Shown: positions 1,074 to 49,221 of the stretch, in pieces | Position numbering within the stretch: the first letter of the stretch is position 1 | How the letters are laid out: each line of letters opens with the position of its first letter | Assembly: GCA_017398945.1 (NCBI GenBank) | Contig: JAFQES010000018.1 | Span: 74,494-138,493, forward strand | Length of the DNA stretch: 64,000 bases | DNA from: Bacilli bacterium | GTDB lineage: Bacteria > Bacillota_I > Bacilli_A > RF39 > UBA660 | Reading direction: 5' to 3' | The notes under the pieces: generated by a model | The model's database searches: none | Told to the model about the DNA's origin: nothing | Seen by the model: the letters and a program-made list of their open reading frames with translations, nothing else | Position numbers and translations under genes: made by a program

Positions 1074-1628
1074 TTACATCACCGTCCCAAAACTAGTATT
1101 AGCACCATCGTTAAAGAAATTATCTAAAATTACTCTTAAATCATTATTAGAAACTTGAACTGAATTTAATCCAGCATTAGCTAAATTCATAATTAAATTA
1201 CGTAATTTCTTTTGAACTATTTCTAATCTCTTTTCTTTAAATAAAATAAAATATTCTGTATCAACAACGCCATATTCTTGACCAGCAAACATATTCCCTT
1301 TGTTGATATCTTGCATGATTAATTTTCGAGCAATTGGATTAGGGTTGTTATTATATAATAATTGTAATTGAGACATATAAACATGAATATCAACTGGACG
1401 ATCTGCTACGATTAACCAAAATTCATAATCAATTGTATTGTAAAAATTACGAAGGGCTGCTAATGCTGAATCTTGAGCTCCTTTTTCTAAAATAAAGATA
1501 TTTTTAGGAGCAATTTTAACCCCACTTACATATTGTCCATCTTCAAGTTGGATCATACCATTTAAAATTTGTTTAATTGGTAACCAATCCTCTGTATATT
1601 TTTCTCCACTATTTTGTGTCATCGCCAT
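1074..1628 (-). CDS. N-terminal segment of the same VirB4-like protein, cut off from the ATPase part by a frame change (possible pseudogene or split gene)
   Basis: The track ORF 1074..1685 (...EKYTEDWLPIKQILNGMIQLEDGQYVSGVKIAPKNIFILE...) sits where the N-terminal domain of Gram-positive VirB4 proteins would be. It ends at TAA 1074-1076, 2 nt before the ATG of the ATPase part. I chose the internal ATG at 1628 as start because the longer form overlaps the upstream gene by 77 nt. Confidence 0.6.
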   Translation of the reverse strand: MAMTQNSGEKYTEDWLPIKQILNGMIQLEDGQYVSGVKIAPKNIFILEKGAQDSALAALRNFYNTIDYEFWLIVADRPVDIHVYMSQLQLLYNNNPNPIARKLIMQDINKGNMFAGQEYGVVDTEYFILFKEKRLEIVQKKLRNLIMNLANAGLNSVQVSNNDLRVILDNFFNDGANTSFGTVM

Positions 1629-1935
1629 ACCACACACACCAACCTTTCCATTTATAGCTTTTTTGCTTAAAAATAAATGTAACAATATTAATGATTAATT
1701 GTAAAACATTATGATAATGAGGCACTGGCATTACTAAGAAAGCTGATACTAATGCCGGTGCTAAAATCATCATCAAAGTTTTAAATTCAGTTGAATTAAT
1801 TACTAACAACATTATAACTGTAGTTAAGACACCAAAACCAAATATAAACAAATCAACCATTGTAAAATAACCCAATATTAATCCCGATCTTTTTGCATTT
1901 GCTGGAATTAAATATGTTTGTTCTTCTTGTTCCAT
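1609..1935 (-). CDS. VirB3/PrgI-like small membrane protein of the T4SS
   Basis: 108 aa with two hydrophobic segments (GLILGYFTMVDLFIFGFGVLTTVIMLLVI; LMMILAPALVSAFLVMPV), placed directly upstream of the VirB4-like gene as PrgI/VirB3-type genes are. Call rests on topology and context. Confidence 0.55.
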   Translation of the reverse strand: MEQEEQTYLIPANAKRSGLILGYFTMVDLFIFGFGVLTTVIMLLVINSTEFKTLMMILAPALVSAFLVMPVPHYHNVLQLIINIVTFIFKQKSYKWKGWCVWYGDDTK

Positions 1936-1950
1936 ATGTTATCTCCCTTT

Positions 1951-4449: not shown

Positions 4450-4467
4450 ATACTATTTACTCCTTTA

Positions 4468-5751
4468 CTAACTTAATTTACACGTGGTGTAAGCCCCTAA
4501 TAAAGATAATATAAAATTAATTAATATTGGGAGAAAGAATATTACAATAGCAGCAATTAATCTTTTTACGGCAGTTGTTGTAGATTTTTTTAGTTGGTCT
4601 TTATCTTGATTTATTGTAGCTTTAATAAAATCCATAGTGCTTAAAGCAAACGTTAAAATAATTGCGCCATATTTCATGATATTTAATGTTAAATCCAAAT
4701 AATATGCTGGTTCACAATTAGTCCCCGTCGGACACTCACGACTTCCTAAAAAACCTTCACAGCCTTCTTCTCCGCCCCAATCGATTTTATATTTTTCTAT
4801 ACTTTTAATTCGAAAATTAGCATAATTTCCTAAGCCTTCTGCAAGGTCATTTATATTTTCTGAAACATTTCCTATGTATTCTTGTCTTTGCTCTTCGCTT
4901 AATGATTGATCATTTTCTATAACTTTTTGACACGAATCATAAGCTGAATTAAATTTTGTATTAACTACAGAGGCTACCTTATCAAAAGCATTAGTGTTTA
5001 ACATAAAATCTGGAATATCTTCCACTTGCCAATCGCTATGAATAAAATATGATTGGATTAATTGTTTTTTTATTTGAGTTTCTATTTCTGTAATGTATTC
5101 AGTTACTATTCCATTTTCATCTTCCCTTTTATTTTTCAAATTATTACAAAATGGATTTTCTTCCAAACTTTTATCAGGATAAACACTAAATTTAACAGCT
5201 AAATATTTATCTAACATTGTATTAATAATTTTTTCTTGCTCAGACATAAAATTGAAAGTTCTAATTGCATTTGTTATTGTCCAAGACTTTTCCTTGTGTT
5301 TTGTTTCTAAATAGAATTTTTCATCAGTTGGTTCGTCAAAAAATTTTGGTTCCCCAATTGCTCCCAATGCATCCGGCAAGTCAAAGTAAGCATATGATGG
5401 ACATTGATAAGCTTCTATCATTTCTTTAAATTTTGTTTTATTTAAAGTTTCTCGAGGTATTAAAGCTATCGGATCTGAAGACTTAATACTATATGACTTA
5501 ATTTCATTATCTACCTTTAAACCTTGATAAATCAATTCATATTTATCTGAATTAGGAGAATAGTAAATTGCTGATTTTAATTTTATTAATTTGTTTTCAT
5601 TGGAATCCTTTGAGTTTTTATATTGCAAATGATTTTCATACTCACAAATTTTCACAGAATCACCATATGAAGGTTCCAAATCTGTAGCTAGAACTTTTGT
5701 GGGAAGAAACATAAAAATAACTAGTATTACAAAAAATATAACTTTCTTCAT
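4468..5751 (-). CDS. Secreted T4SS-associated protein with a C-terminal pilin-like two-TM module
   Basis: 427 aa with signal peptide MKKVIFFVILVIFMFLPTKVLA. The last ~80 aa (IMKYGAIILTFALSTMDFIKATINQDKDQLKKSTTTAVKRLIAAIVIFFLPILINFIL) align with the 124-aa and 139-aa pilin-like proteins at 5760..6134 and 35892..36308. Confidence 0.5.
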   Translation of the reverse strand: MKKVIFFVILVIFMFLPTKVLATDLEPSYGDSVKICEYENHLQYKNSKDSNENKLIKLKSAIYYSPNSDKYELIYQGLKVDNEIKSYSIKSSDPIALIPRETLNKTKFKEMIEAYQCPSYAYFDLPDALGAIGEPKFFDEPTDEKFYLETKHKEKSWTITNAIRTFNFMSEQEKIINTMLDKYLAVKFSVYPDKSLEENPFCNNLKNKREDENGIVTEYITEIETQIKKQLIQSYFIHSDWQVEDIPDFMLNTNAFDKVASVVNTKFNSAYDSCQKVIENDQSLSEEQRQEYIGNVSENINDLAEGLGNYANFRIKSIEKYKIDWGGEEGCEGFLGSRECPTGTNCEPAYYLDLTLNIMKYGAIILTFALSTMDFIKATINQDKDQLKKSTTTAVKRLIAAIVIFFLPILINFILSLLGAYTTCKLS

Positions 5752-5759
5752 AAATTCAC

Positions 5760-6134
5760 CTACTCTGAAAATATTCCATCTTTATCGTTTATTTTACATG
5801 AAGATGGTTCCTTTAAACACTTTGTTAAACAATCGAATGTTTTAACTTTATTAACACCATCTACTAAAGACATTACAGCAGTTATTGCATAAGGAATAAA
5901 GAAAATTATTATTGCTGCAATTGCCTTTTTTACTAAAGCACTTATTGCCACTTTGATTGCTTTATCATCGCTTGCTAAAACTGCTTTACCTAGTTCAAAT
6001 GATCCAAGTCCTATTAAAAGAATTGGAATAACAATTTTTAAAAATACTAATACGTATCCAAGTATTTGAAACGCTTTTAATAAGCCACTTTGATCACATA
6101 TTGCAAAGTCAGCTAAAGTAAAAAATTTTTCCAT
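5760..6134 (-). CDS. VirB2/TrbC-like (pilin-like) two-TM conjugal transfer protein, first gene of the T4SS operon
   Basis: 124 aa with a TM hairpin, IVIPILLIGLGSFELGKAVLASDDKAIKVAISALVKKAIAAIIIFFIPYAI, and a Cys-containing tail. Topology and position match pilin-like genes of Gram-positive and Mollicutes ICE T4SS clusters. Family assignment is from memory of that family and is not verified. Confidence 0.5.
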   Translation of the reverse strand: MEKFFTLADFAICDQSGLLKAFQILGYVLVFLKIVIPILLIGLGSFELGKAVLASDDKAIKVAISALVKKAIAAIIIFFIPYAITAVMSLVDGVNKVKTFDCLTKCLKEPSSCKINDKDGIFSE

Positions 6135-8741: not shown

Positions 8742-8806
8742 TATATATCACTCCTTTCATTAGTTATATTTCTAAAGTTTAAATTATTTCCTTGTTATAT
8801 TTGGTT

Positions 8807-27437: not shown

Positions 27438-27454
27438 ATAAAAACCTCTTTCTA

Positions 27455-27644
27455 AATAAAAAACATTCCTCCCAAAGGACGAATGTTTTCGTGGTACCAC
27501 CTTATTTTTTTCTCTGTAATCTGTTAAGGAAGATTAGCCCAATACAATCAAAAAGCAAGTTCATCAATTTCTTTTCTTAGTTTACACCAACCACTAAGTC
27601 TCTAGAAAAAGAAGATTTGATTACTACTCTTTTCTCATCTGCTT
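27455..27644 (-). promoter_or_regulatory. T-box leader upstream of the membrane-protein-leuS operon
   Basis: The minus strand has Stem-I-like elements (gagaaaagagtag..., tctagagac, ggttggtgtaaac), the T-box sequence AAGGTGGTACCACG (core 27490-27501), and a terminator aaacattc/gaatgttt plus T-run. A TATAAT -10 lies at 27651-27656. Confidence 0.8.
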
Positions 27645-34379: not shown

Positions 34380-34387
34380 AAAACCTC

Positions 34388-34642
34388 CTAATTTTCAATT
34401 ATATTTTTAATTTCTTCTAAAGTTTTTTCGCCATCAAGACGAGCAATTAAATCATCATTTCGATAAAACAAGATAACGGGTAAAATATCTTTTACATCGT
34501 ACTCTTTAACAATATCTTCATCCATATCATAATCGTATTCAATTATTTCAATATCAGGATAATCTTTTTTTAAAATATCCCAATATTTATGCATTTTTAA
34601 ACATGCTGAGCACCACATTGCCCCTATTTTAATTATTTTCAT
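34388..34642 (-). CDS. Thioredoxin-family protein
   Basis: 84 aa with GAMWCSACLKM (CxxC) and a thioredoxin-like layout. Confidence 0.75.
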   Translation of the reverse strand: MKIIKIGAMWCSACLKMHKYWDILKKDYPDIEIIEYDYDMDEDIVKEYDVKDILPVILFYRNDDLIARLDGEKTLEEIKNIIEN

Positions 34643-35891: not shown

Positions 35892-36308
35892 TTAATTTCC
35901 GTTATTATTTTCATCAGTTTTTTCGTTATATGTTGCATCTTTAGCAGATTCTACAGCGGTTTTACAAGCTCCATCTTTTTTATTAGGATTAGTAATACAA
36001 GCTTGACATATTTTATAGTCTTTTTCAACATCATCAAATCCTATTACAATTCCAAAAATAAAACTTACTAAGAATGGTAAGAAGAAAATTACTACTCCAG
36101 CAATCGCTCTTTTAACTAATGAACTTGTAGCATTTTTAATAGCCTTATCATCATTAGCAACTACTGCCTTTCCTAAATCCATCATACCAAAAATAATTAA
36201 TAATAGTGGAATTGCTATTTTAAATACATATAAAACATATCCTACAAATTGCCATATAGGTGATGTTCTTGTACAAAATTGAGTTACCTCTGCAAGAATA
36301 TTTAACAT
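35892..36308 (-). CDS. VirB2-like (pilin-like) two-TM protein, paralogue of 5760..6134
   Basis: IAIPLLLIIFGMMDLGKAVVANDDKAIKNATSSLVKRAIAGVVIFFLPFLV aligns residue-for-residue with the T4SS-operon protein. The Cys-containing tail is ICQAC...GAC. Confidence 0.5.
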   Translation of the reverse strand: MLNILAEVTQFCTRTSPIWQFVGYVLYVFKIAIPLLLIIFGMMDLGKAVVANDDKAIKNATSSLVKRAIAGVVIFFLPFLVSFIFGIVIGFDDVEKDYKICQACITNPNKKDGACKTAVESAKDATYNEKTDENNNGN

Positions 36309-36333
36309 CAAAATCTCTCCTTCTCTGCATATA

Positions 36334-36368: not shown

Positions 36369-37364
36369 TCACTTAAACAAGCCAAATAGTTTGCTTTTTC
36401 CACCATTAGGATTTTTAAGCTTTGCAAATCCTAGTGCTATTCCAAATTCATCCATAACTTTATGATGATCTTTTTTATCATCGATATATGGTATGTTAAA
36501 GAAAACTTTACTATTACTTTCGTATTCAAAATCACTAACATCTTTATTACTTAAAATACTTCTATTTAAAACTACTTTTTTATCTTTTAATTTATCAAAC
36601 ACTTTAGGATCTTCTCTAATAAGCTTATTTAATTTTATGATTCCTGGTTCAATTAAATACACAACATCTGTACATCCAGTTTCACTACCATCATCCCCTA
36701 AGTCAACCAAAATAGCTTCTAAATCTTGATGCATTGCTACAAAAGCAGCAAATTCTAGCGTACTAATACTTTTTAATGATTCATCAGAAAAAAATGCAAA
36801 GTCATTTTTATCAAGTTCTACTGCTACAACTTTGTACGCCTGTTCTAAATGTTTTTTTAGCATATATACTAAAGTTGTTGATCCAGCATGGGATGTAACA
36901 TTTTTAAAACCAATCACTCTCGTCTTCATCGACCCAAAAACTCCGCCAATACCATTCATATCAGGAACTTGTGATGCTACACCTTCCATATTATGATAAC
37001 TTGCAACATCTTTATATGTATTTGGATTATCAATTAAAAATTTAATGGCATCTAAGTTACGGGTAAAGTTATAAATTCCCATTGAGACTAATTGAGAAAG
37101 ATACATAGGCGCATTAGCTTCTTCTGAATCATCTAAAAGAATAATAACTTTATTCATATCAAAACTAACTGAAAGTTCTTGAATAACAGCTATTTGTTTA
37201 TAATCTTTTATAGCTGTAATATCTAAAATCATTTTATTATAAAAAAAATTATTAAATTGATTAGCTAACTCACCTGGAGTAAATTCGCCATTAATGCTTT
37301 TTATTACATCTACATCTAAAGTTGTTAGCATTGCTTGGTATTTATTTGAAACTATTACATTCAT
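36369..37364 (-). CDS. tadZ: TadZ/CpaE-like protein (receiver-like N-domain plus degenerate ParA/MinD-type domain)
   Basis: The C-domain RVIGFKNVTSHAGSTTLVYMLKKHLEQAYKVVAVELD has ParA/MinD spacing, but the P-loop is SHAGSTT instead of KGGxGKT. The N-terminal ~120 aa are CheY-like in pattern. Context is the Tad-like operon. Confidence 0.55.
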   Translation of the reverse strand: MNVIVSNKYQAMLTTLDVDVIKSINGEFTPGELANQFNNFFYNKMILDITAIKDYKQIAVIQELSVSFDMNKVIILLDDSEEANAPMYLSQLVSMGIYNFTRNLDAIKFLIDNPNTYKDVASYHNMEGVASQVPDMNGIGGVFGSMKTRVIGFKNVTSHAGSTTLVYMLKKHLEQAYKVVAVELDKNDFAFFSDESLKSISTLEFAAFVAMHQDLEAILVDLGDDGSETGCTDVVYLIEPGIIKLNKLIREDPKVFDKLKDKKVVLNRSILSNKDVSDFEYESNSKVFFNIPYIDDKKDHHKVMDEFGIALGFAKLKNPNGGKSKLFGLFK

Positions 37365-37376
37365 TTTTATTCCTCT

Positions 37377-37865
37377 TTAATCAAATTGATCCTTTCTATC
37401 TATCATATCTGAAGTCTTTCCTTTAACGGTAAATCTGGCAATATCACCAAGAATAGGAACATTAAAACTATAAAATAGTGTTACTTCATAATTGACTCTT
37501 GTTAAACTATCATTAAATCCTTGTTTTCTTTCTTGTTCTATACAATAAAAATAATTTTCATTTTCAGTTACATTTTGAGCATTTATATCATTATAATCAT
37601 TTATTCCTAACATAGGGTTCTCGGTCGGATTATTTTGATCAACGCATCTTCCCATAGTCATGTATCCAGAGTTTCTTAAATAATTATTTATTATTTCAGC
37701 AGATACATCTGTATATCCTTGGTATTTTTCTATTATCGATATAACTTCGTTTTTTACTTTAAATACCTTTGAGTATGTTATAGTTAATGTTAGGAAAGCA
37801 ACAAATAACAAAATGAACCCTATCATTAATTGTAAAGTCCATGTTGAGCCATAAACGTCTTTCAT
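37377..37865 (-). CDS. TadE/TadF-like pseudopilin candidate
   Basis: 162 aa starting MKDVYGSTWTLQLMIGFILLFVAFLTL. It is a paralogue of 37876..38349 (shared VFKVKNEVISIIEK and a C-terminal beta-strand region ending FTVKGKTSDMI). Confidence 0.5.
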   Translation of the reverse strand: MKDVYGSTWTLQLMIGFILLFVAFLTLTITYSKVFKVKNEVISIIEKYQGYTDVSAEIINNYLRNSGYMTMGRCVDQNNPTENPMLGINDYNDINAQNVTENENYFYCIEQERKQGFNDSLTRVNYEVTLFYSFNVPILGDIARFTVKGKTSDMIDRKDQFD

Positions 37866-37875
37866 AACAAACCTC

Positions 37876-38349
37876 CTATATCATTGGTTTTGTATCACCT
37901 TTTATAGTTAAATTAAAAATCGAGCGAATAAGGGGTATTTCTAAATGATAAAAGGTTTTTATTTGATAATAATACATAGGTGCCCCTAATGTTGCTGATG
38001 CACTATTTACTTTTCTTACACAAAAGGCTGCAGCTCCGCTTGCAATATTTCCTCGTTCATCAAATCCTACCCATTCTGCGTCACCATCAAAATCTGAGTT
38101 ACAATTACCATTTATTCTATAACCTATTTCTTCTAATTCTTCAGTTACTTCTTCAGTAAAATATATATCATCTGCTAAATCAGTAACTTCCGTTAGTCCA
38201 GCACCATTTCGTTCTAATATTCTAATTAAACTATTTTTTACATTAAAAGCTTTTGTTTGATTAATTGACAAACACATATATCCAGCAAATAAAATAACAA
38301 AAAAGATTACTATCATAAATAACCAGTTACCACCAATAGCTTCTTTCAA
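37876..38349 (-). CDS. TadE/TadF-like pseudopilin candidate
   Basis: 157 aa starting MKEAIGGNWLFMIVIFFVILFAGYM, with the C-terminus YYYQIKTFYHLEIPLIRSIFNLTIKGDTKPMI. Confidence 0.5.
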   Translation of the reverse strand: MKEAIGGNWLFMIVIFFVILFAGYMCLSINQTKAFNVKNSLIRILERNGAGLTEVTDLADDIYFTEEVTEELEEIGYRINGNCNSDFDGDAEWVGFDERGNIASGAAAFCVRKVNSASATLGAPMYYYQIKTFYHLEIPLIRSIFNLTIKGDTKPMI

Positions 38350-38359
38350 TTTTGTTCAC

Positions 38360-38590
38360 CTACCCTTTATATGCACAATCGAAAGTATTACCTGGATTGC
38401 TTTCCATATAACACTCACATACACCTGTAGATTCATTACAACTTGTACATATTGCATCACTACAATTAGCGGAATCTTGTATTCCTGTTTTAATAGCTGG
38501 CCATATCACCACAGAAAAAAGAGCCACTAGACCAGCTACGGCTAAAACAATTATTACTGTTAAATTAAGTTCACTAATGGCTTCTTTCAT
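38360..38590 (-). CDS. Small pilin-like protein (candidate fibre subunit), Cys-rich
   Basis: 76 aa starting MKEAISELNLTVIIVLAVAGLVALFSVVIWPAIK, then 6 Cys in the last 34 aa. Confidence 0.5.
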   Translation of the reverse strand: MKEAISELNLTVIIVLAVAGLVALFSVVIWPAIKTGIQDSANCSDAICTSCNESTGVCECYMESNPGNTFDCAYKG

Positions 38591-38599
38591 TATTTATTC

Positions 38600-38872
38600 C
38601 TATTCTTCTAAACAATTTCGAGTATAATCTCTATTATTATAGTGAGCTGTACACTCAAAATGAGTACATTCAACAGTTCCTTCTCCATTAGCTCCAACTC
38701 CAGCATCAGCTGAGCTATAGTTTCCGTTTGAATTAACACTACTACAAGCCGTACTTAAAAGTAAATTAGCTTGAATATTTGGCCAAACAAACATTGTAAA
38801 TAATAATCCTACTGCAGCAATTGCTACTACAGTAATTACTGTCATATTTAATTCTCCTGTTGCTTCTTTCAT
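38600..38872 (-). CDS. Small pilin-like protein (candidate major subunit), Cys-containing
   Basis: 90 aa starting MKEATGELNMTVITVVAIAAVGLLFTMFVWPNIQ, then 4 Cys. It is preceded by a near-consensus promoter. Confidence 0.5.
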   Translation of the reverse strand: MKEATGELNMTVITVVAIAAVGLLFTMFVWPNIQANLLLSTACSSVNSNGNYSSADAGVGANGEGTVECTHFECTAHYNNRDYTRNCLEE

Positions 38873-38907
38873 TTATATATCATCTCCTATTTTTAATCTA
38901 TATTTTT

Positions 38908-38936
38908 ATTATACATATTTTTTAATTTAATATCAA
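38908..38936 (-). promoter_or_regulatory. Internal near-consensus SigA promoter (TTGATA-17-TATAAT) in front of the pilin-like genes
   Basis: The minus strand reads TTGATAttaaattaaaaaatatgTATAAT, in the only sizeable (80-nt) gap within the operon. Confidence 0.55.
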
Positions 38937-38952
38937 TATTTTAAATTATATT

Positions 38953-39741
38953 TTACATATTCATCATTTGTAAAACTGCTAATACTAGCAAAATCATAAC
39001 TCCAACTCCAGTAGTTACTAACATTTGCATTGTTTTACTTTCCATTTTTTCCAAACGTTCTTTATATCTAGTCTCTCTGGCTTTTTGTTGAAGATTAGAA
39101 ATTGTTTTAGAAAAAGTCATTAATTGTTCTTGTTTTCTTTCTTGTCTCCCTAAACTTAAACGATATAGTAATCTCATCATACGCATTGAATCTCTAACTG
39201 GATAATTTCTAGCAAAATCCATATATGGTTCAATAGTATCATTACCAGCATTAATTTCATTTATCATTTGTTGTAATCCATCTTTAAAAATTGCTGGTGC
39301 ATCATTCATTGACTTACCTATAGCAACAGGAACAGTATAATGTTGGATTAAAATTTCTAAACTTTTTAAATAATAAGGAAGCATTGAATCTATTTTGTGC
39401 AAATGTGATTTATGATAGTTTTTTATAGATATGTAGTCCCATTTAAAAATAGCAAATGCTCCTATTAAAGATATAACTACTGATATAGCACTAATATCTT
39501 TTATCATAAATAACATTATTAGTATAAAGATCAAAAAAGCATTTTTTATTCTTTTGGCAAATAATATATCTGGACTTACTCCATCACCATATTTAGCTCT
39601 AACATAAAAATCCCAATCGTCTTCTTTTAATCTTCTAAATAACATTTCATTGTCAGCAAATAATTTATTGAGATCTAATCTTCCGGTGTAACTCATTATA
39701 AAGAAGACAATAATCGCTATAATAATAATTTCTATTTGCAT
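38953..39741 (-). CDS. TadC-like platform protein (T2SS-F-type domain)
   Basis: 262 aa with N-terminal and central TM segments, a cytoplasmic helical domain (LPYYLKSLEILIQHYTVPVAIGKSM...) and a C-terminal TM segment. It overlaps the upstream gene by 1 nt. Confidence 0.55.
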   Translation of the reverse strand: MQIEIIIIAIIVFFIMSYTGRLDLNKLFADNEMLFRRLKEDDWDFYVRAKYGDGVSPDILFAKRIKNAFLIFILIMLFMIKDISAISVVISLIGAFAIFKWDYISIKNYHKSHLHKIDSMLPYYLKSLEILIQHYTVPVAIGKSMNDAPAIFKDGLQQMINEINAGNDTIEPYMDFARNYPVRDSMRMMRLLYRLSLGRQERKQEQLMTFSKTISNLQQKARETRYKERLEKMESKTMQMLVTTGVGVMILLVLAVLQMMNM

Positions 39742-40634
39742 TATTCTACCCCCACATCTTCATTATAATATTTTACACCTTTAATTAAAAAGATAGCATT
39801 TATTATGATAATGGCATGAAGAATAATCTGAACATAAACTTTTTCTAATAATTCAACGTAATTTTCAGAACCTAGTAAAAATTGCATAACTAAAACTAAC
39901 AAAAATAAAACAAAACCAAAAGTTAAAAATTTTCGATAGAATGTTTTTCTATCCATTTGATCTCGATAGACACCTTCAACTAGGGTATCAATATCCATAG
40001 CCATATTTTCTAAGGATTCTCCAGAGTCTCTTGCTCCTTCTTTAGTGATTTGTAAGAATAATTGATGCATATTTTTTACCATATAAAATGGGTATTTACT
40101 ATTAAAATATTCGATTGATTCATCAATGGTACCATTTTTATATGACATATCTATCATATTTTTTAAATCTCTTAAAACAGGATCTTCAATAATACCAGAA
40201 TCTCTAACTCCTTCTAAGGATTTAACAAAACTCTGTGTTGTATTAAATTCCATTATAACGTTAGTCGTATATACTTGAATTTGTTCAAAAATGTATTCAC
40301 TATATAACCTTTGACTTCTTAAATAAGCAAGATATGGAATAAAAGCAATTGCTACCCCAGCATAAACTATTGCCCATAAGATACTATAGAAATAAAAGTA
40401 TGAAATACCACCTGCTAATCCTCCAAATAAAACTACTTGTAATACATATTGTTTTTTAGTATATTGAAAACCTAATTCTTTTGTTTTTTGATTTACTTCT
40501 TTGAAAGTATATGGAGCATATTTTTCATATACATCAATAGCCTTCTTAGAAGCATCCTTGTAAGCTTGTTGACCATTACCAGTTCTATATAACATTACAA
40601 AAGCTGCAATTGCAAGTAATAAAATTAGCTCCAT
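39741..40634 (-). CDS. TadB-like platform protein (T2SS-F-type domain)
   Basis: 297 aa with the same TM/helical-domain/TM layout. It directly follows the ATPase gene. Confidence 0.55.
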   Translation of the reverse strand: MELILLLAIAAFVMLYRTGNGQQAYKDASKKAIDVYEKYAPYTFKEVNQKTKELGFQYTKKQYVLQVVLFGGLAGGISYFYFYSILWAIVYAGVAIAFIPYLAYLRSQRLYSEYIFEQIQVYTTNVIMEFNTTQSFVKSLEGVRDSGIIEDPVLRDLKNMIDMSYKNGTIDESIEYFNSKYPFYMVKNMHQLFLQITKEGARDSGESLENMAMDIDTLVEGVYRDQMDRKTFYRKFLTFGFVLFLLVLVMQFLLGSENYVELLEKVYVQIILHAIIIINAIFLIKGVKYYNEDVGVE

Positions 40635-40649
40635 TTATTAACCTTCTTT

Positions 40650-41786
40650 CTATAATGATTCTATATTGTTAGAAATCAATTGAGTTTCTAAATTGTTTTG
40701 TTGACTATTATCTTCTACTGCTTCAGCAGCTGTTATATGAAGAGGATTTTCGTCTAAAATAACACCTTGCGCTCCCATATATCTTCTTAAATACTCAGTT
40801 GGATTATTAAAAGATATCGTTCCATCTAATCCCTTTTTAAATAAGATATTAGAACCTGCTTCATTGTTATCATCAACAAAGAACTCACATACTTCAACTA
40901 TTTCTCTTTGAAATCTACCTAATTCTTTGCTTAAATAACCTTTTACATGAACCCCAATTTGAACATATCGATGAATTGATTTTAAAAATTGGTCAATATC
41001 TTGATTACTTTCTAATAAACTGTACATACGCATCGGAATATTTTTGGCACTGTCTGAGTGAATAGTAGAAATTATGTTATGTCCAGAAGAAATTGAGTTT
41101 CTTACAGCCATTACAGCTTCTCCACTACGAACTTCGGAAAGTAAAATCCATCGAGGATTCTGTCTCATACATGTTACCAATACATCTGAATATGAAGCGA
41201 TATTATTAGTTTTCATTGCAACAATATCACGCATTGGAAATATTTTGTCTAAGTGTAATTCTAGTGTATCCTCAATAGTAATAATTTTTTCATTTTCCTT
41301 TGTGTTACTAGCTAAGTATTTTACCAATTCGGTTTTACCTGAACCAGTTTCTCCACTTACTATAATATTGCAATGTCCAATAACACATTGAATAAGAAAA
41401 TTATGTAATTCCTCTGTTACATATTTTTCGTCTAATAATTTTTCTTTATTTAATCTAATTTTGGCTGGAGTTTTACGTATAACTAACGCTGTTCCATTTG
41501 TAGCAATTGAGTCATGTACAAAGTTCATACGTAACTCAGCACTTTCAGCATCCAAAAAAGGATGAGCCATATTAAACGTCTTACCCATAACATTAGCACA
41601 TTGAAAGGCTAACTTATCAATTAAGGGATCATTTATTTCTGGTCTTTCAACTTTATAAACACCTTTGTCTAAAGACTTTAACCAAATTTGCCCCCCATTG
41701 GTATATGAAACGTCTGTTATATTGTCATCCTCTAAAAACTCTTTTAACGGACCAAAATCGATTTGGGAAAATATTGCATCTCTCAT
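40650..41786 (-). CDS. tadA: TadA/CpaF-type secretion ATPase (T2SS-E/VirB11 superfamily)
   Basis: Walker A SGETGSGKTE, Asp box IITIEDTLEL, MRQNPRWILLSEVRSGEA, His box STIHSDSA, and the N-terminal NITDVSYTNGGQIWL motif. Confidence 0.8.
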   Translation of the reverse strand: MRDAIFSQIDFGPLKEFLEDDNITDVSYTNGGQIWLKSLDKGVYKVERPEINDPLIDKLAFQCANVMGKTFNMAHPFLDAESAELRMNFVHDSIATNGTALVIRKTPAKIRLNKEKLLDEKYVTEELHNFLIQCVIGHCNIIVSGETGSGKTELVKYLASNTKENEKIITIEDTLELHLDKIFPMRDIVAMKTNNIASYSDVLVTCMRQNPRWILLSEVRSGEAVMAVRNSISSGHNIISTIHSDSAKNIPMRMYSLLESNQDIDQFLKSIHRYVQIGVHVKGYLSKELGRFQREIVEVCEFFVDDNNEAGSNILFKKGLDGTISFNNPTEYLRRYMGAQGVILDENPLHITAAEAVEDNSQQNNLETQLISNNIESL

Positions 41787-41800
41787 GGTCTTACCTCTTT

Positions 41801-42598
41801 TTAATTTCCAACTACTGCAGAATTTGCTTCTATCATGTTTTTTAAATATAAATTTACGATATTTTCTTTTTGTTCAGTTATTTCTGAGTACGGTACTTCT
41901 TTCGGAACCGGTATAAGTTCAAATGAATATGTACTTAACATAGTCGCTTTTGTTAATAACTCAAAATTTGCTTTAGAAACAACCGTAATTATGTATTTCG
42001 GAGATGAACCTTCATCACCAGCCGTTGTACTCCATTTTGTATCAACTACATCTATTACTTCCAAGTTTTCCATAAATGGCGCAAATATTACTTTACCAGT
42101 TTCATCTTTCCCTTGTAAATATAAGTCGATAGCATTCCCTGGTGCAATGGAATTTCCGTGTGTTGTATCTAAATCAACATCTAACATAAATAACTTGTAA
42201 TCTTTTTTTAAATTTTTATATAATTTTTGATCAGCTTTTTCTGATTTAGCAACCAGATCATCAGTACATAGCAAAGAACCAGCTGTCAAACTATGATCAA
42301 AATTTACAAAAAAGAATTCGTTGTTACCATCTTTTATTTGCGATAAATTTGTAACTAAATTTTTATATGTTTCGGTTAATTTTTTATTAACAGTAACCTT
42401 ACCTAACATATCTTCTGTTAATTGCGTATTACTTCCTACGGCTTCTTTAACATAATATACTTGAATCGTTGCAACGCTTTGATTTACCCGATAATTATAC
42501 CCAACATATAAAACGATAATCCCTGCTAATACACCTAAAATTGTTACAGTGTTTTTATTTGCTATAAATCTTTTTAAATTATTTAATAAATTACCCAT
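41801..42598 (-). CDS. cpaB: CpaB/RcpC-like pilus assembly protein (N-terminal TM, SAF-like and beta-clip domains)
   Basis: TM segment TVTILGVLAGIIVLYVG, then IQVYYVKEAVGSNTQLTEDMLGKVTV (SAF-like), and LFMLDVDLDTTHGNSIAPGNAIDLYL...LEVIDVVD...YIITVVSKANFELLTKA (RcpC-like). Confidence 0.65.
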   Translation of the reverse strand: MGNLLNNLKRFIANKNTVTILGVLAGIIVLYVGYNYRVNQSVATIQVYYVKEAVGSNTQLTEDMLGKVTVNKKLTETYKNLVTNLSQIKDGNNEFFFVNFDHSLTAGSLLCTDDLVAKSEKADQKLYKNLKKDYKLFMLDVDLDTTHGNSIAPGNAIDLYLQGKDETGKVIFAPFMENLEVIDVVDTKWSTTAGDEGSSPKYIITVVSKANFELLTKATMLSTYSFELIPVPKEVPYSEITEQKENIVNLYLKNMIEANSAVVGN

Positions 42599-42613
42599 TT
42601 TTATTCCTTTCTA

Positions 42614-43027
42614 CTACTTTTCAAATTCTCCATGGTTTATTACTGCATCTATTTTTTCAACTATATCAAAACTATCTGCATCACCCATAACGTTAAATGA
42701 ATTTGATTGACTCGAAACTCTTACACTAACTTTTGGAGGTGCCTCATAAATATCATAAAAACTTATGGTATAAGTACTACTTAATGATACTGAATCAGCA
42801 AATCTTCTGATGAAAGATTCTATAAACTTCTCTTTGTTAATTCTTACTTCTTTCCAATCACGATAATAAGTATAATCAATAGCATCTAACATAGAAGCTT
42901 GAGCTATTTCTTTTACTAAGTAATAGTCTTGACTTTTTGTAGTTGTAATATTATTTATAAGCATCATTACTACTACAATAAATATACCTAGTAAAACTAA
43001 CCAATAACCCCAATAGGTATCTTTCAT
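42614..43027 (-). CDS. Pilin-like/pseudopilin candidate
   Basis: 137 aa starting MKDTYWGYWLVLLGIFIVVVMMLINN, with the same MK(E/D)-type short leader as the four genes at 37.4-38.9 kb. Confidence 0.45.
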   Translation of the reverse strand: MKDTYWGYWLVLLGIFIVVVMMLINNITTTKSQDYYLVKEIAQASMLDAIDYTYYRDWKEVRINKEKFIESFIRRFADSVSLSSTYTISFYDIYEAPPKVSVRVSSQSNSFNVMGDADSFDIVEKIDAVINHGEFEK

Positions 43028-43043
43028 TATTTACACACTCCTT

Positions 43044-46007
43044 CTATCTGAATGCTGGTCCTTCTTGTGATTTTTTACCCTTGTAAGCGGACCATATACG
43101 TTCTGATACATCTAATTCATCAAGATTGTCTTCAATTTTATTATTATCTAATTCTCCTGCTAAAGTATCAAGATAAGTACTTGTACAAATTACATAATCA
43201 TTTGTTAAATTTATACAATTTAAAGTATTATTTAAATAACCTCCAGCATCTTCAACAGAGTCATTATAATCACGAATTCTATTAATATCATTTGGTTCTA
43301 ATGTAATACTGTAAACTAAATTATCCTCAGTATATGCTTCTTCGCCTGAATTTTTAATATTAGCTAAAGCCGCTTGTCCTTTCTCAGTTCTCCAATTTGC
43401 TGCCAAGCCTTCTGTATTCGGAGTTGCTGTTGCAACAACATCTTCAACATTATTTTCTTCTTTTGCTTCAACTGAATTATAAGCTAAAGCATTTTTATGA
43501 ACATTATTTAAGTATGCTACATCTGCTCCTGCAAAAGGATTCATTAGCGAAATTGGTGAAAAATCTATTGCCAAGCCATTAGAAATATCAAATACACATC
43601 CTACGCTACGACATTGCCAAATACATTCATCATCACAATCAGGATCTCCCCAACACATTCCTTCGGGATCACATCCCCAATCACAGTCTGTACATCCGTT
43701 AACGTTATAAGGACAAATAAGATCTACTTCATCCAAACCTAATTCATAAGCAACTGCTTCTAGTCTACCTGCTTTACATTTGCCGCCATGAAGATGGTGT
43801 CCATAATTACTAACAATAAATTGATATGAGTATTGACCTTGAGGTGTTTCATAATCTACTGGCCATCCTTCAGTATATACTGTTCCAGGCATCTCTTCAC
43901 ATTGATCTTTAGTATAATTATAATATGATTCCCCTTTGTTGTAATCATTACAAATTCCAACAGAATTTAATTTGTAAGTATTTTTTATAGTAGCTGAACC
44001 ACTCGTATAGTTAGCATCAGTAAATTCTTTAGTCTTTTCAGAACCAATACCTAAAGAAACCGATGTTTTTTTGCTTGTTTTGTTACTTTGATATTTTCCA
44101 GTAGTAGATTTATAAGTAGTAGTAGGTGTATTAGTTGTTACCTCTACATTTACAAGTTCTAAATCCTTGCTAGTTATTCTTAACCATTCTCCATCTGTAT
44201 ATGTAAAACTTACACTTGGATGACAATTTCCTGATTTAGATACTGCTTTTTCTAAATTTCCAAAGTCCCAACTATTACATTGTTCATACAATCCAACTTG
44301 TTCATTTGAATAATTAATATATTCAGCTTTTTTTGCTGCAATAGTCGCGTCATCTGCCTTTATTGTTTGAGCAACACATGTTCCTACAGCTACCTCTTCA
44401 GTTATTGTGCCTGATTTAGTAGGGTCATTTACTATTTCAACTGCCAAACTACTTCCTTTTCTTCTAGCAACATATTCTTTGGTAGTTGTAGTTTTAGCTT
44501 CTTTAGTTTCTTTTGAGCCATCATCTAAAGTTTCTTTCCAAGTAGTACATGTTACAGTTGTTTCACTTAAAGTATTAGCATATTGTTGCGCTTTATTTAC
44601 TATGTTTTCCATTAATTTATCAATATAGTTTTCACCATAACATGAAATATGAGTTTCATCATAAGCTTCATCAGGTTCAAAATTAAAATACGACCCAGAT
44701 GTTATTAAATATTCATTACCATTTTTATCTAGTGTACTTAATGGCCCAGGTGATAAGAATTCGTAATCTTCTGTACAATAAATATCACAATATTCATTGG
44801 ATTTAATTGTTTCACCCATTATCATTTCAGTCGCCTTTAACGACGTTCCGGTTATATCTTCTTCACCAATAATACATGCATCAATAGATTCATCAGTTGA
44901 TGTATATTCATCTCCTTCAGTAACAGTAACAACTGTTTGCCCAAAACTATCACATAATCCACTAAATGCTCCTGGAACGCCACCAGATGAGTTGTCAGTG
45001 TATCCAGGTATTTCTCTACAGTCTTCATCTCCTGGATCATCAGGATCAGCACCACAATTTATTGGTTCACCAGAAGCTATATCTATAGTTGATTCTCCGC
45101 CTCCGTTACTTGTTTGGTCGCATCCCATATAATTTTGAGCTCCAGATCCTAAATTACAGTTATATTGAACTACTTTAGTACAAGCATTGGCTGCCCCACT
45201 ATAAGTAAGTGTTGCAGAATAAGTTCCACAATTTCCGCTTCCATCATCCTTTTTGGTTGCATTAAAACTTTTTGAAACTGAACCTGATACTTCTGTAGTA
45301 CCAGCACCTTCCAAATCTCCAGTAACCGTAAGTTTTGCTCCAGAAGGTACATTTGAACATGTTATTGTTACTTTACCATTAGCATTTTTAGCGCTACAGC
45401 TTGGCGCTTGAAATTGGGCCGGACTTCCTGTACCAGCTCCACTAGCCGAAATAGCTCCAGCCGCAAGATCTATAGCAGCAGTACCAATTTCATCAGTTTG
45501 GACGCCAAACTCACTAGCGCAATTTGCACCATAAGAACTTTTCTTACTTGTTAATCCTTCAGACATTTTATACCCAGCTTTTGATGATGCTTGAGATGCT
45601 GCAGAAATATATCCACATTGAGTGTTTACAACATCCTTACTAGAAGAATTCTGGAATCTAGAAGTTCCTGTGGCAGTAGAATAAATTCTCATCGCTAACG
45701 CCTTTGTTTCTTCATCAGCATTACTACTAAAAATGTAGGCCGCTCCAGCCGCTTGTTGCCCAGTTACTTCTTTTGAAGTACAAGATGCTCCACTAGTTGC
45801 AGTTACCTTTCCTGGATCAACACAGTATGCGCTTCCTCCATCTTCAAAATTAATTATTGTTGCCCCTCCAGCTTTATAACCATCATCTTTATAAAAATGA
45901 GTACTACTAACATCAGAATAATCAGAAACTTTTTTATCTGCGTTTGCCATCATTGGACAAACAAATAAAGTTAAAATAATTAATAAACTTAATATTTTCT
46001 TTTTCAT
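43044..46007 (-). CDS. Large secreted cysteine-rich protein (987 aa), function unknown
   Basis: Signal peptide MKKKILSLLIILTLFVCPMMANA. About 35 Cys by my count, including 9 in CPYNVNGCTDCDWGCDPEGMCWGDPDCDDECIWQCRSVGC. There are Gly/Ser/Ala/Thr-rich segments. No LPXTG motif or C-terminal TM segment is seen. Confidence 0.7.
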   Translation of the reverse strand: MKKKILSLLIILTLFVCPMMANADKKVSDYSDVSSTHFYKDDGYKAGGATIINFEDGGSAYCVDPGKVTATSGASCTSKEVTGQQAAGAAYIFSSNADEETKALAMRIYSTATGTSRFQNSSSKDVVNTQCGYISAASQASSKAGYKMSEGLTSKKSSYGANCASEFGVQTDEIGTAAIDLAAGAISASGAGTGSPAQFQAPSCSAKNANGKVTITCSNVPSGAKLTVTGDLEGAGTTEVSGSVSKSFNATKKDDGSGNCGTYSATLTYSGAANACTKVVQYNCNLGSGAQNYMGCDQTSNGGGESTIDIASGEPINCGADPDDPGDEDCREIPGYTDNSSGGVPGAFSGLCDSFGQTVVTVTEGDEYTSTDESIDACIIGEEDITGTSLKATEMIMGETIKSNEYCDIYCTEDYEFLSPGPLSTLDKNGNEYLITSGSYFNFEPDEAYDETHISCYGENYIDKLMENIVNKAQQYANTLSETTVTCTTWKETLDDGSKETKEAKTTTTKEYVARRKGSSLAVEIVNDPTKSGTITEEVAVGTCVAQTIKADDATIAAKKAEYINYSNEQVGLYEQCNSWDFGNLEKAVSKSGNCHPSVSFTYTDGEWLRITSKDLELVNVEVTTNTPTTTYKSTTGKYQSNKTSKKTSVSLGIGSEKTKEFTDANYTSGSATIKNTYKLNSVGICNDYNKGESYYNYTKDQCEEMPGTVYTEGWPVDYETPQGQYSYQFIVSNYGHHLHGGKCKAGRLEAVAYELGLDEVDLICPYNVNGCTDCDWGCDPEGMCWGDPDCDDECIWQCRSVGCVFDISNGLAIDFSPISLMNPFAGADVAYLNNVHKNALAYNSVEAKEENNVEDVVATATPNTEGLAANWRTEKGQAALANIKNSGEEAYTEDNLVYSITLEPNDINRIRDYNDSVEDAGGYLNNTLNCINLTNDYVICTSTYLDTLAGELDNNKIEDNLDELDVSERIWSAYKGKKSQEGPAFR

Positions 46008-46750
46008 AAAACACTTTCTCTCTTTCGTTTTATATTCACCACTACAATGGCAACCCCTGCAATAACGATTATAGAGCCTCCAGCAATAAATGCTACTTTA
46101 TGTTTTTTAACAAAATCCCCTATATTTTCGTACCATTTTTTATTCTCTTCTTTTTCTTTCTTTTCATTTTCTACTACTTCTAAGTATTCACTAATTTGTT
46201 CATATTGGTCAGCATATTCCATTTTGACAGTGATATACTTTTGACAAGGTAAATAATCAGTTATTCCTTCACACATTATTGTTTCATAAAAATCATTGTA
46301 CATTGGAGTAACTAGATAATTTGTAAAATATTTTTCATTCCTACAGTCGGTTTCATCTGAAGAATATATTTCAAATGTAAAATTAACTACATCATCTAAG
46401 TTATACCAATTTAAAGTATACATTCCATCGGTTGTATCTTTGTACCTAATGAATTTAACTTCATCGTTATAATCGTTCATAACTTTAACATATATTTCTT
46501 TCGTAATATTTGTAAAAATAATTTTAAAGTATTCTCGATATAGTTCAACTTCTCCAACAGTTTCATTTGTAGGAGCATATAAAGAAGAATCTACTTTTTG
46601 CGATGCTTCTTCATATACAGCTTTAACACTGCCAGCCACCTTACTTAATTCCACTTGTTTTTCATAAGAACATGCCGATGCAGCGTCTACTACATTTAGA
46701 TTTGTTAATGCAAGTATTCCAGCTAGTATTCCAACCACTTTTTTCTTCAT
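46004..46750 (-). CDS. Secreted protein with a C-terminal membrane anchor, first gene of the operon
   Basis: MKKKVVGILAGILALTNLNVVDA signal peptide, C-terminal TM segment VAFIAGGSIIVIAGVAIVVV, and an NIKRKRE tail. Its stop overlaps the next ATG (ATGA). Confidence 0.6.
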   Translation of the reverse strand: MKKKVVGILAGILALTNLNVVDAASACSYEKQVELSKVAGSVKAVYEEASQKVDSSLYAPTNETVGEVELYREYFKIIFTNITKEIYVKVMNDYNDEVKFIRYKDTTDGMYTLNWYNLDDVVNFTFEIYSSDETDCRNEKYFTNYLVTPMYNDFYETIMCEGITDYLPCQKYITVKMEYADQYEQISEYLEVVENEKKEKEENKKWYENIGDFVKKHKVAFIAGGSIIVIAGVAIVVVNIKRKRESVL

Positions 46751-46774
46751 AGTATACACCAACCTCTACATGTG

Positions 46775-46876: not shown

Positions 46877-47548
46877 ATGATAGATGTTAAAGAAAAATCA
46901 AAAAATATTGGAAAGTTTTTAATAATTTTATTTTTATATTTTGCTTTATCTTATGTATTAGCTTTTGCTTTTCAAGAAGCTTTCAACTCAAAAAACAATT
47001 TAATAAATCAAACTAGTTCAATATTAGCAAGCCTATTTATATTATTAGTATTGGCACTTTTTCATATCCCGAAGATTATTAATGATTCTAGAAATTTAAC
47101 TAAAGATAATTTAAAATTAGCTTACAAAAATTGGTTAATTGGTTTAATTATAATGTATATTAGTAATACATTTATACTACTTATTAACAAAGATTTAGCT
47201 GCTAACGAAACCGCTAATCGCGCTATCTTAGAACAAGCACCTATATATGCAATTTTAGTTATGATAGTAATTGCCCCTATAACCGAGGAGATAATATTCA
47301 GATTATCACTAAAAAAAATTTTTAAAAGTAAATATACATACTGCTTCTTTTCCGGATTAATTTTTGGGCTTATGCATTTAACTTCAATTAAAGAAATATT
47401 ATTTATAGTTCCTTACGGAGCTTTGGGTTTTTTCTTCGCAAAAACTTTATATGATACTGATAACATTTTTGCTCCTACGATTACTCATATTACACATAAT
47501 GCAATGATCATATTTATTTTACTTGCCAGTAATTTTGTAGGTATTTAA
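46877..47548 (+). CDS. CPBP-family intramembrane glutamic endopeptidase (CAAX protease/Abi)
   Basis: Motifs ITEEIIFR, FGLMH and HITHN in a polytopic membrane protein. It is divergent from the Tad-like operon. Confidence 0.8.
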   Translation: MIDVKEKSKNIGKFLIILFLYFALSYVLAFAFQEAFNSKNNLINQTSSILASLFILLVLALFHIPKIINDSRNLTKDNLKLAYKNWLIGLIIMYISNTFILLINKDLAANETANRAILEQAPIYAILVMIVIAPITEEIIFRLSLKKIFKSKYTYCFFSGLIFGLMHLTSIKEILFIVPYGALGFFFAKTLYDTDNIFAPTITHITHNAMIIFILLASNFVGI

Positions 47549-49198: not shown

Positions 49199-49221
49199 CT
49201 AAAAAAGGACTAAAGTCCTTT
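49199..49221 (-). terminator. Rho-independent terminator after the CotY/CotZ-like gene
   Basis: The minus strand reads aaggac-ttta-gtcctt followed by T5. It overlaps the stop codon. Confidence 0.6.

Follow-up and report, generated by a model that had tools for sequence, protein, structure and literature searches.

A strongly diverged, putative Tad-like filament module and its Gram-positive type IV secretion partner in gut Bacilli

Analysis of a 64,000-nucleotide stretch of a Bacilli bacterium genome (assembly GCA_017398945.1, contig JAFQES010000018.1, positions 74,494 to 138,493; the whole stretch is called the window below) led to a minus-strand operon which, judged by its gene content and remote homologies, is best read as a type IV filament module of a Tad-like but strongly diverged kind, having two major subunits and three minor ones. 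The five small proteins in question are very probably the filament subunits, and the module appears to be the partner of a Gram-positive type IV secretion system (T4SS). The reading favoured here, with a probability of about 45%, is that these proteins are filament subunits of a Tad-like/T4SS machine and are used uncleaved.

Five pilin-like proteins with a conserved N-terminus

A sequence-only reading of the window had described five pilin-like open reading frames (ORFs), and all of them were recovered from a single minus-strand operon (43027..37377); their coordinates and N-termini are just those that had been quoted (sizes in amino acids, aa):

42614..43027 (-): minor pilin-like subunit, 137 aa, Pfam DUF5411, N-terminus MKDTYWGYWLVLLG
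38600..38872 (-): major pilin-like subunit 1, 90 aa, MKEATGELNMTV..., 4 Cys
38360..38590 (-): major pilin-like subunit 2, 76 aa, paralogue of the 90-aa protein, MKEAISELNLTV..., 6 Cys
37876..38349 (-): minor pilin-like subunit, 157 aa, TTG start, MKEAIGGNWLF...
37377..37865 (-): minor pilin-like subunit, 162 aa, N-terminus MKDVYGSTWTLQ...

All five start with M-K-(E/D), followed by about 20 hydrophobic residues, and the earlier remark that one copy has Ser for Gly applies to the 76-aa second major subunit (Ser6). An in-frame stop codon is located 1-6 codons upstream of each start, together with an AGGAG-like ribosome-binding site, and hence no longer leader is possible. Starts of the M[KR][ED] type occur in 7 of the 71 non-shadow ORFs of the window, and only the five have the N-terminal hydrophobic helix as well; the combined pattern is more than chance. 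The proteins represent three independent families, namely the two paralogous majors, two paralogous minors and the DUF5411 protein. Specifically, the 137-aa protein matches PF17424 (DUF5411) with an E-value of 6e-56 (188 bits, gathering cut-off 30), its residues 1-131 aligning with profile positions 1-131. The 157-aa and 162-aa proteins are members of a single superfamily, as their hidden Markov models (HMMs) match each other and the 162-aa profile retrieves 157-type sequences. The pilin-like subunits carry 4-6 conserved Cys.

Relatives were collected from GTDB species genomes with the operon's ATPase as query. The scan gave at least 545 relatives, of which the best 80 loci were analysed (ATPase 73-88% identical to that of the window); they originate from metagenome-assembled genomes of uncultured gut 'Bacilli/Tenericutes', Candidatus Onthocola and Clostridium sp. 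CAG:609. A second set of 80 metagenome loci brought the total to 160 related loci, each locus being read with up to 10 kb of flank, as far as the contig allowed. Beyond the window itself, the reading went on for about 3.5 kb past its right end, up to the end of the contig, and for about 10 kb past its left end. The window's proteins and their families were compared with Pfam, NCBIfam and PDB sequences, and AlphaFold2 (AF2) models, Foldseek and hhalign were also used.

The M-K-(E/D) motif is kept across the approximately 160 related loci, and the orthologue alignments that the sequence-only reading had proposed as a check found this leader conserved in thousands of relatives. Among 249 homologues of the major subunits, MKEATGELNMTV is nearly invariant, with the rest of the protein only ~45% identical; in distant, higher-GC lineages the same N-terminus reads MKEASGELSMTA. 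Gly occupies position 6 in ~92% of the 249, and the remaining ~8% (about 20), with S, A, Q or T at this position, are apparently all of the pil76-like type, a paralogue class in which position 6 is variable and G is much commoner than S, A, Q or T. For the 157/162-aa superfamily (174 diverse representatives), the consensus is M-[RK]-[EQD]-[SAVT]-[IYV]-[G/S/A 96%]-x-T-W(88%), position 6 being N, D, E or R in ~4% of these minor subunits, and members of the 162-aa family align from residue 1 as a rule. Orthologues of the DUF5411 protein, detected in 77 loci, begin with MK(E/N)(S/A)(Y/F)W(G/A)YW and have G/A at position 7 in 97%. Across the orthologue alignments, residues 2-5 are conserved as strongly as residues 6-12. 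An N-terminus of the form M-[KR]-[ED]-small-x-[G/S/A] is the signature of these subunits.

The families are large. The 90-aa major subunit has 2,062 homologous clusters at 90% identity, none of them with a Pfam domain, and the 162-aa profile retrieved at least 1,390 representatives of 50%-identity clusters at E<=1e-3. With more than 2,000 clusters and at least 1,390 representatives lacking a Pfam domain, in hundreds of uncultured gut Bacilli species, they would belong to a common surface machine of gut bacteria so far invisible to annotation. The main interest of the module lies in the size of these unannotated families and in the link to genes 36-41 of plasmid pLS20 described below, more than in a missing peptidase.

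Two observations concern variation among the subunits. Several members of the 162-aa family (P0040, P0042, P0047, P0054, P0071, P0094, P0109) have long C-terminal repeats of the type TYTVSFN.NGG...GY.F.GW, which we take to resemble Listeria-Bacteroides surface repeats; if so, such members would be modular minor subunits with adhesin-like domains. Extensions of this kind fit an exposed C-terminus. Additionally, the HMMs detect a single major and a single minor subunit, plus the 331-aa and VirB2-like genes described below, in L148, L152, L154, L159, L161 and other loci, and duplicated subunits are not essential to the design in such reduced-set lineages.

Concerning the fold, the AF2 model of the 162-aa protein (predicted local distance difference test, pLDDT, 75) has a helix at residues 4-47, a second one at 53-66 and four strands, and that of the 90-aa protein (pLDDT 77) has residues 1-9 as coil, a helix at 10-44 and a three-stranded sheet. 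Both models would have the pilin 'lollipop' layout, by topology only. This helix with a small beta-sheet, along with an operon that holds a T2SSE-family ATPase, a CpaB-like protein and two platform-like proteins, bears out the pilin-like character assigned to the five proteins at the outset.

The operon and its secretion partner

Apart from the five subunits, the operon consists of the following genes:

46004..46762 (-): 252 aa, signal peptide and C-terminal transmembrane (TM) helix; opens the operon; no Pfam match; present in 66 of 80 loci, each time in first place
43044..46007 (-): 987 aa, secreted, rich in Cys and fast-evolving, with a signal peptide; no Pfam match; orthologues only ~24% identical
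41801..42598 (-): CpaB/RcpC-like protein, 265 aa, N-terminal TM helix and SAF-like domain; TIGR03177 at 1.7e-7 and PF16976 at 8e-5, both below curated cut-offs
40650..41786 (-): CpaF/TadA/VirB11-family secretion ATPase, 378 aa; PF00437 T2SSE, E-value 6e-29
39741..40634 (-): platform-like polytopic protein, 297 aa; TadB/T2SSF-like via intermediates
38953..39741 (-): second platform-like polytopic protein, 262 aa, in the TadC position; no Pfam or PDB match
36369..37364 (-): 331-aa soluble protein, always after the minor subunits; 53 loci, 50-65% identity; invariant GFKNVT.H.G.TT motif
35892..36311 (-): VirB2-like two-TM 'T4SS pilin' protein, 139 aa; the operon's last gene; PF18895 at 8e-5, below cut-off; 1-5 tandem copies

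The gene order in 80 loci is 252-aa, 987-aa, DUF5411, CpaB-like (1-2 copies), ATPase, 297-aa, 262-aa, two small subunits, 157-aa, 162-aa, 331-aa and VirB2-like (1-5 copies), and the 80 metagenome loci show the same order. The best NCBIfam matches of the 378-aa ATPase are VirB11 and TadA-family models, all below equivalog cut-offs; across 80-84% of its length it shares ~35% identity with the 'VirB11' (gene 37) that plasmid pLS20 of Bacillus subtilis encodes and with Priestia/Peribacillus CpaF/VirB11 proteins. The HMM of the CpaB-like family matched an annotated cpaB product of B. thuringiensis (8e-36) and a Priestia SAF protein (1e-33). The 297-aa protein has no direct match in Pfam or PDB, and Pfam searches with all its family members gave no T2SSF match. 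Its HMM retrieved a Priestia protein named 'type II secretion system F family' by NCBI (2e-12; this protein matches PF00482 at 3.4e-5), a 310-aa B. thuringiensis protein (1e-6; PF00482 at 0.0036) and pLS20 gene 38 (0.003). For the 262-aa protein, the HMM matched a 279-aa Priestia protein (3e-15), a 247-aa Peribacillus protein (5e-8) and pLS20 gene 39 (3e-4), and hhalign found no homology between the 297-aa and 262-aa families. The 331-aa protein had no match in Pfam, NCBIfam or PDB; read by eye, its sequence suggests a receiver-like N-terminus and a degenerate ParA/TadZ-like P-loop. The 987-aa protein may be an adhesin or displayed cargo, by analogy with related loci, where adhesins of Ig-like, thioester, isopeptide or cadherin-like type stand in its place.

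The second set of genes lies about 30 kb from the pilin operon on the same strand, with the housekeeping genes tyrS and leuS in between:

1074..6134 (-): T4SS module, continuing beyond the left end of the window
5760-6134 (-): VirB2-like protein heading the module, paralogue (w124) of the 139-aa operon gene
between the 5760-6134 and 1951-4449 genes, in listed order (-): 427-aa protein
1951-4449 (-): 832-aa VirB6-like conjugal TM protein; NCBIfam MMCAP2_0566/Mbov_0396 at 4e-10
between the 832-aa and TraC-like genes, in listed order (-): 108-aa protein
1074-1685 (-): TraC-like/VirB4 N-terminal protein; Mbov_0397 VirB4 at 5e-13

Beyond the left end, the contig continues with VirB4-like, SpoIID-domain, 289-aa and VirD4 genes. 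VirB2-like genes are present in both the pilin and the T4SS modules. In related loci the two modules adjoin: T4SS genes come directly after the pilin module in L003, L044, L048, L089-L091, L100 and L101, and a partial set does so in L046, L051 and L092. Specifically, L089/L090, L091/L092, L100 and L101 have a block of pilin, minor, 331-aa-like and VirB2-like genes, then VirB6-like, TraC-like and VirB4-like ATPase genes; an M23/lysozyme wall hydrolase follows in L089/L090, L100 and L101, and L091 and L092 end before that point. On this linkage, which recurs in several lineages and in differing contexts, the Tad-like module would be the partner of a Gram-positive T4SS. No relaxase gene was seen near the T4SS set that was read, and the conjugative function of this T4SS is a prediction. 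The two halves of the Tad-like operon can also be rearranged, being in reverse order in L102 and apart in L062-L073. In L062, L064, L068, L069, L071 and L073 the ATPase/platform half stands without an adjacent pilin half (after the 262-aa gene), and in L089, L100 and L101 the pilin half is joined to the T4SS, with no ATPase half called in the 10 kb fetched upstream.

Could the five proteins be signal-anchor accessory or channel parts of the T4SS, with the ATPase as its VirB11, and not filament subunits at all? The five match no Pfam pilin family and their models no solved pilin fold significantly, the best NCBIfam match of the ATPase is VirB11, the linkage to the T4SS is tight, with no ATPase module called in the 10 kb fetched upstream in L089, L100 and L101, and the pLS20 literature treats the corresponding genes as unknown T4SS parts (PMC8557374). 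These points are set against the company that the five proteins keep, as the window and its Bacillus relatives have platform, CpaB and ParA/TadZ-like proteins, and the relatives have Flp-like and A24-like genes as well. To our knowledge, VirB11 ATPases are not accompanied by T2SSF-type platform, CpaB or ParA/TadZ-like partners. Furthermore, two tiny abundant paralogues plus larger proteins sharing an N-terminal helix is the pattern of major and minor pilins. We consider the T4SS-part explanation unlikely, and we infer filament subunits, with major and minor roles, for the five proteins.

Some neighbouring genes were recorded besides. The T4SS block is flanked by Bro-N and Fic/RhuM genes; three Bro-N genes and Fic/RhuM are found in the window at 7917-9604, 12361-13308 and 55237-55566, and a transposase fragment lies just past its right end (L085), which suggests mobile-element remnants around both modules. 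A few kb downstream of the operon, an 84-aa thioredoxin and a 403-aa membrane protein are encoded (33168-34642, minus strand). The latter has no Pfam match and, by eye, a thioredoxin-like N-terminus with a CcdA/DsbD-like membrane part; this neighbourhood is kept in 1 of 80 loci, making its linkage to the operon doubtful. A CotZ-like spore-coat protein (49220-49663, minus strand; PF10612 at 3e-14) hints at a spore-forming organism despite the 'Tenericutes' label of its relatives.

The leader and its possible processing

The leader had been called unlike known prepilin signals. It does fit none of G|F(T/S)LxE, G|xxxxEY and (K/R)G|, but its length and layout are those of the type IVa leader MKxxxG, and so the claim stands in part. 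Tested as a class III leader, major subunit 1 fits in its length of 5-6 residues and its Gly6, but the net charge, positive in such leaders, is about zero here, K2 being paired with E/D3. A cut after residue 6 would place Glu at +1 and Thr at +5 in the majors, with no Glu at +5; the minor subunits would have mostly Gln/Gly at +6 and no Glu. The G|xxxxEY motif is absent from the five proteins, and Pfam and NCBIfam searches gave no PF04964 or PF07811 match; matches to PF13400 (TadE/G-like, E-value 0.09) and DUF4320 were at noise level, in 2 of 29 family members. What would set the leader apart is its near-zero net charge with a conserved acidic residue at position 3, and it is not a demonstrated new signal class.

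With regard to a prepilin peptidase, the sequence-only reading had noted that none is nearby. Pfam and NCBIfam searches covering every multi-TM ORF and most other ORFs of the window found no A24 peptidase, and none was found in the sequence read beyond the window, in the 160 related loci including their flanks, or among the annotated genes of the pLS20-type plasmid. The weight of this negative is small, because prepilin peptidases are often encoded elsewhere: all MSH loci are without one, and tadV has been modelled as a 'loner' (Denise et al. 2019, PMC6668835). Canonical G[FM][TS]LxE signals, looked for in the window and in 80 loci as a proxy for a resident A24 enzyme, turned up in one sequence only, which is of the 157-aa family. 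Two small ORFs with several TM helices (one, DUF6512, at 13463-13975 of the window, the other at 27024-27500) were also rejected as peptidases, being without Asp/GD.K motifs.

A lead comes from Bacillus megaplasmids carrying related loci. These encode a 172-181-aa polytopic protein with an Asp in the motif TD(L/V)K and a further motif, SPGDTK (pBMB431, L099:13980-14525; Priestia, L096:4461-4979), which in pBMB431 follows directly after two Flp-like genes. The best Pfam match of the B. thuringiensis protein is PF01478, over nearly the full model (E-value 0.012), and the 172-aa Priestia candidate had no match in Pfam, NCBIfam or PDB; the A24 assignment of this family is a lead, not a result. By tblastn it occurs in 271 plasmid records, 266 of them Bacillus, and is 'hypothetical' in all 25 records listed. 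The Flp-like proteins of pBMB431 have a 21-residue leader (...SSENG|MLIALAV) with no Glu at +5 and no EY, and its DUF4320 and DUF5411 minors have very short, Gly-less N-termini. Branches with the A24-like gene have long leaders, and those without it 3-7 polar residues. Searching every fetched ORF with an HMM of these A24-like proteins yielded nothing but antisense matches, which are spurious.

It is quite possible, and we rank it second among the readings, that an A24-type enzyme encoded elsewhere cuts after Gly6 in the majors and after G/S/A at position 6/7 in the minors, leaving a mature major subunit that starts with Glu. Candidates would be a ComC/PilD enzyme that also serves a competence pseudopilus, or a diverged enzyme of the TadV type resembling that of the Bacillus megaplasmids, whose location beside Flp-like genes lacking Glu+5/EY points to peptidases that need neither. 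Cleavage would imply an enzyme that works for another system as well, or else one of this very diverged A24-like family. Such an enzyme was never linked in the 160 loci, however, none of the fetched loci has a homologue of the Bacillus A24-like family, some paralogues have Q or T at position 6, and the leader is conserved as strongly as the mature part.

An unconventional protease was considered as well, above all the membrane protease beside the operon, which had been put forward as the only one nearby:

46877..47548 (+): CPBP (Rce1-like) intramembrane protease; PF02517 at 1e-16; divergent neighbour

The gene is where it had been placed, divergent to the operon in the window, but it is not consistently linked: CPBP was detected in 23 of 80 loci, and in about 22 further loci none lies between the metallophosphoesterase gene and the operon. 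That metallophosphoesterase gene (47550-48323, plus strand) is itself a more constant divergent neighbour than CPBP, in 45 of 80 loci. Another CPBP gene is located ~10 kb upstream of the Peribacillus conjugation operon, yet none is annotated on the pLS20-type plasmid, in the pBMB431 stretch read or in L089-L102. CPBP paralogues are abundant in Firmicutes, and adjacency is expected by chance. The gene is probably not part of the system, and CPBP was set aside as a dedicated peptidase. C39-like peptidases, seen in L089 and L101, were likewise rejected for want of conservation from locus to locus. Processing by CPBP or another such membrane protease is very unlikely.

Two options are live, as the sequence-only reading had proposed: a distant peptidase may process the subunits, or they may be used uncleaved. 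Under the favoured, uncleaved reading, the subunits would enter the membrane by way of the hydrophobic N-terminal helix and have the C-terminus on the outer side, and the CpaF/VirB11-type ATPase, acting via the two platform-like proteins, would extract and polymerise them into a short pilus or pseudopilus across the thick wall. Priming or capping of the filament would fall to the minor subunits, which may also display the large secreted protein. The module would act with a pLS20-type T4SS (VirB4, VirD4, VirB6-like, VirB2-like and wall hydrolase), probably in a cell-contact or wall-crossing step. We lean towards an N-terminus that is kept intact ('leaderless' pilins), in which case no dedicated prepilin peptidase would be needed, and the ion pair K2/E3, plus E7 in the majors, would replace the free N-terminal amine and Glu5 of classical pilins.

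Several points argue for this absence of cleavage. No A24-like gene was found in the window, in the sequence read beyond it or in the 160 loci, and none is annotated on a pLS20-type plasmid, which is self-transmissible; residues 2-5 are kept as well as residues 6-12; and leaders are short in the branches that have no A24-like gene. The N-terminal segment is not positively charged, owing to the pairing of K2 with E/D3; an acidic residue is also found at position 3 in the products of pLS20 genes 40 and 41; and position 6 tolerates Q/T/S/A in ~8% of majors and N/D/E/R in ~4% of minors. The only A24 enzyme of B. subtilis is ComC, whose gene belongs to the ComK regulon; pLS20 represses comK (PMC12378983).

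Other points weigh on the opposite side. Every characterised type IV filament uses a prepilin peptidase, a universal precedent in which the gene is often an unlinked 'loner' (PMC6668835). A small residue is strongly preferred in three unrelated families, as a -1 rule would give (Gly6 in ~92% of majors, G/S/A at position 6 in 96% of minors, G/A at position 7 in 97% of DUF5411 proteins), the MKxxxG length and layout is that of a type IVa leader, and AF2 leaves residues 1-9 of the major subunit unstructured, with the helix starting after residue 9. These points favour cleavage by an unlinked A24 enzyme. Others touch the filament itself: Foldseek searches with the 162-aa and 90-aa AF2 models gave nothing at E<0.4 in PDB, the 262-aa and 331-aa proteins have no family assignment in Pfam, NCBIfam or PDB profile searches, homology between the product of pLS20 gene 41 and the major subunits is not detectable, and no member of this family has been seen to form a filament.

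If the subunits are indeed uncleaved, they would be an exception to the prepilin-peptidase rule and form the first peptidase-independent type IV filament. A leaderless filament, if true, would also provide a pilus-like structure for Gram-positive systems that are currently thought to be without one (PMC11730352, PMC8557374). The broader proposition, that pLS20-type and chromosomal Firmicutes T4SSs hold a built-in Tad-like filament of leaderless pilins with no prepilin peptidase, is possible but less likely than not.

Comparison with known systems

IncI type IVb systems presumably carry their own prepilin peptidase, PilU. Their thin pili (R64, TP114) are described as aiding conjugation via tip adhesins (PMC9045228). 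The likeness is one of functional analogy only: these systems are Gram-negative with canonical prepilins, and no sequence relationship to the window has been shown.

Compared with Tad/Flp systems (Flp, TadE/F, TadV, CpaB/RcpC, TadZ, TadA/CpaF, TadB, TadC), the window likewise has one bifunctional-type ATPase, a CpaB-like protein and two consecutive platform-like proteins, and very small majors in two copies with larger minors, all bearing an N-terminal hydrophobic helix. It differs in having no G|xxxxEY motif, no Flp or TadE match, no TadV in the locus and a platform that PF00482 does not match directly, whereas its 5-6-residue uncharged leader, the Cys-rich beta domain of the majors and the coupling to a T4SS are foreign to Tad/Flp. 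The Tad locus of Bulleidia extructa (PMC12786226) was considered and put aside as a different system, with tadV in its operon.

Among gut Firmicutes, the 'secretion-related membrane machinery' predicted by computation in Roseburia, Ruminococcus and Eubacterium has CpaF, PilC/GspF-like, DUF5411, large adhesin-like and tiny proteins in common with the window; DUF5411 is there reported from predicted pilus/secretion operons of Clostridia as uncharacterised (Miller et al. 2022, PMC9523054). Compared by description, it has one 434-aa PilC-like protein instead of two smaller ones, and no T4SS link or N-terminal motif is described for it.

The megaplasmid loci of the Bacillus cereus group and Priestia (pBMB431, NZ_CP004877.1; NZ_CP061869.1) stand nearer. 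They share CpaB, CpaF/VirB11, a T2SSF-like pair and minors of the DUF5411/DUF4320 type, and are matched by the window-protein HMMs at 1e-5 to 1e-58; the DUF5411 HMM, for example, matched a Priestia DUF5411 protein at 1e-5 and a 149-aa B. thuringiensis protein at 4e-6. The pBMB431 locus comprises CpaB, ParA-like, CpaF, T2SSF-like, DUF4320, DUF5411, two Flp-like and A24-like genes. Unlike the window clade, these loci have a canonical ParA-like TadZ, Flp-like proteins with a 21-residue leader ending in Gly and an A24-like peptidase within the locus. The B. thuringiensis locus holds a true DUF4320 protein (3e-21), and pLS20 gene-40-like proteins match DUF4320 weakly.

In a tblastn search of plasmids with the ATPase, the best matches were plasmids of Priestia and Peribacillus and the pLS20 family of B. 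subtilis (~64 kb); the same search with DUF5411 gave nothing, the DUF5411 genes annotated there being too diverged for BLAST. The conjugation operon of pLS20 (genes 34-52) is collinear with the module of the window and continues with T4SS genes:

pLS20 gene 34: adhesin; correspondence by position only
pLS20 gene 36: 126 aa; DUF5411 at 1.4e-5, window DUF5411 HMM at 2e-5
pLS20 gene 37: 'VirB11' ATPase; ATPase HMM at 1e-47
pLS20 genes 38 and 39: polytopic proteins; HMM at 0.003 and 3e-4
pLS20 gene 40: 120 aa; DUF4320 at 0.006; hhalign to the 162-aa family, E-value 1e-4, probability 57%
pLS20 gene 41: 47 aa, duplicated; correspondence by position only, similarity not detectable
pLS20 gene 45: T4SS_pilin; PF18895 at 1.3e-7; not matched by the HMM of the window 139-aa protein
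pLS20 downstream genes: VirD4, VirB6, DUF5592, VirB4 and hydrolase, in annotated order

The two systems also differ. One is on a plasmid and the other on a chromosome, where its genes are split in two blocks ~30 kb apart; pLS20 has no CpaB-like or 331-aa counterpart and has extra genes 43 and 44; and the N-termini of its gene 40 and 41 products (MLDG../MLDQNADR..) are acidic at position 3, with no Lys and often no Gly. In the literature, pLS20 genes 36 and 38-41 are of unknown function and the system is said to be without pilus components (Val-Calvo et al. 2021, PMC8557374); we found no description of this module as Tad-like. pLS20 is the best-studied conjugative plasmid of Bacillus, and its genes 36-41, to which the module would correspond, are conserved but functionally unassigned; a Tad-like filament in such operons offers a testable hypothesis for mating-pair formation in liquid.

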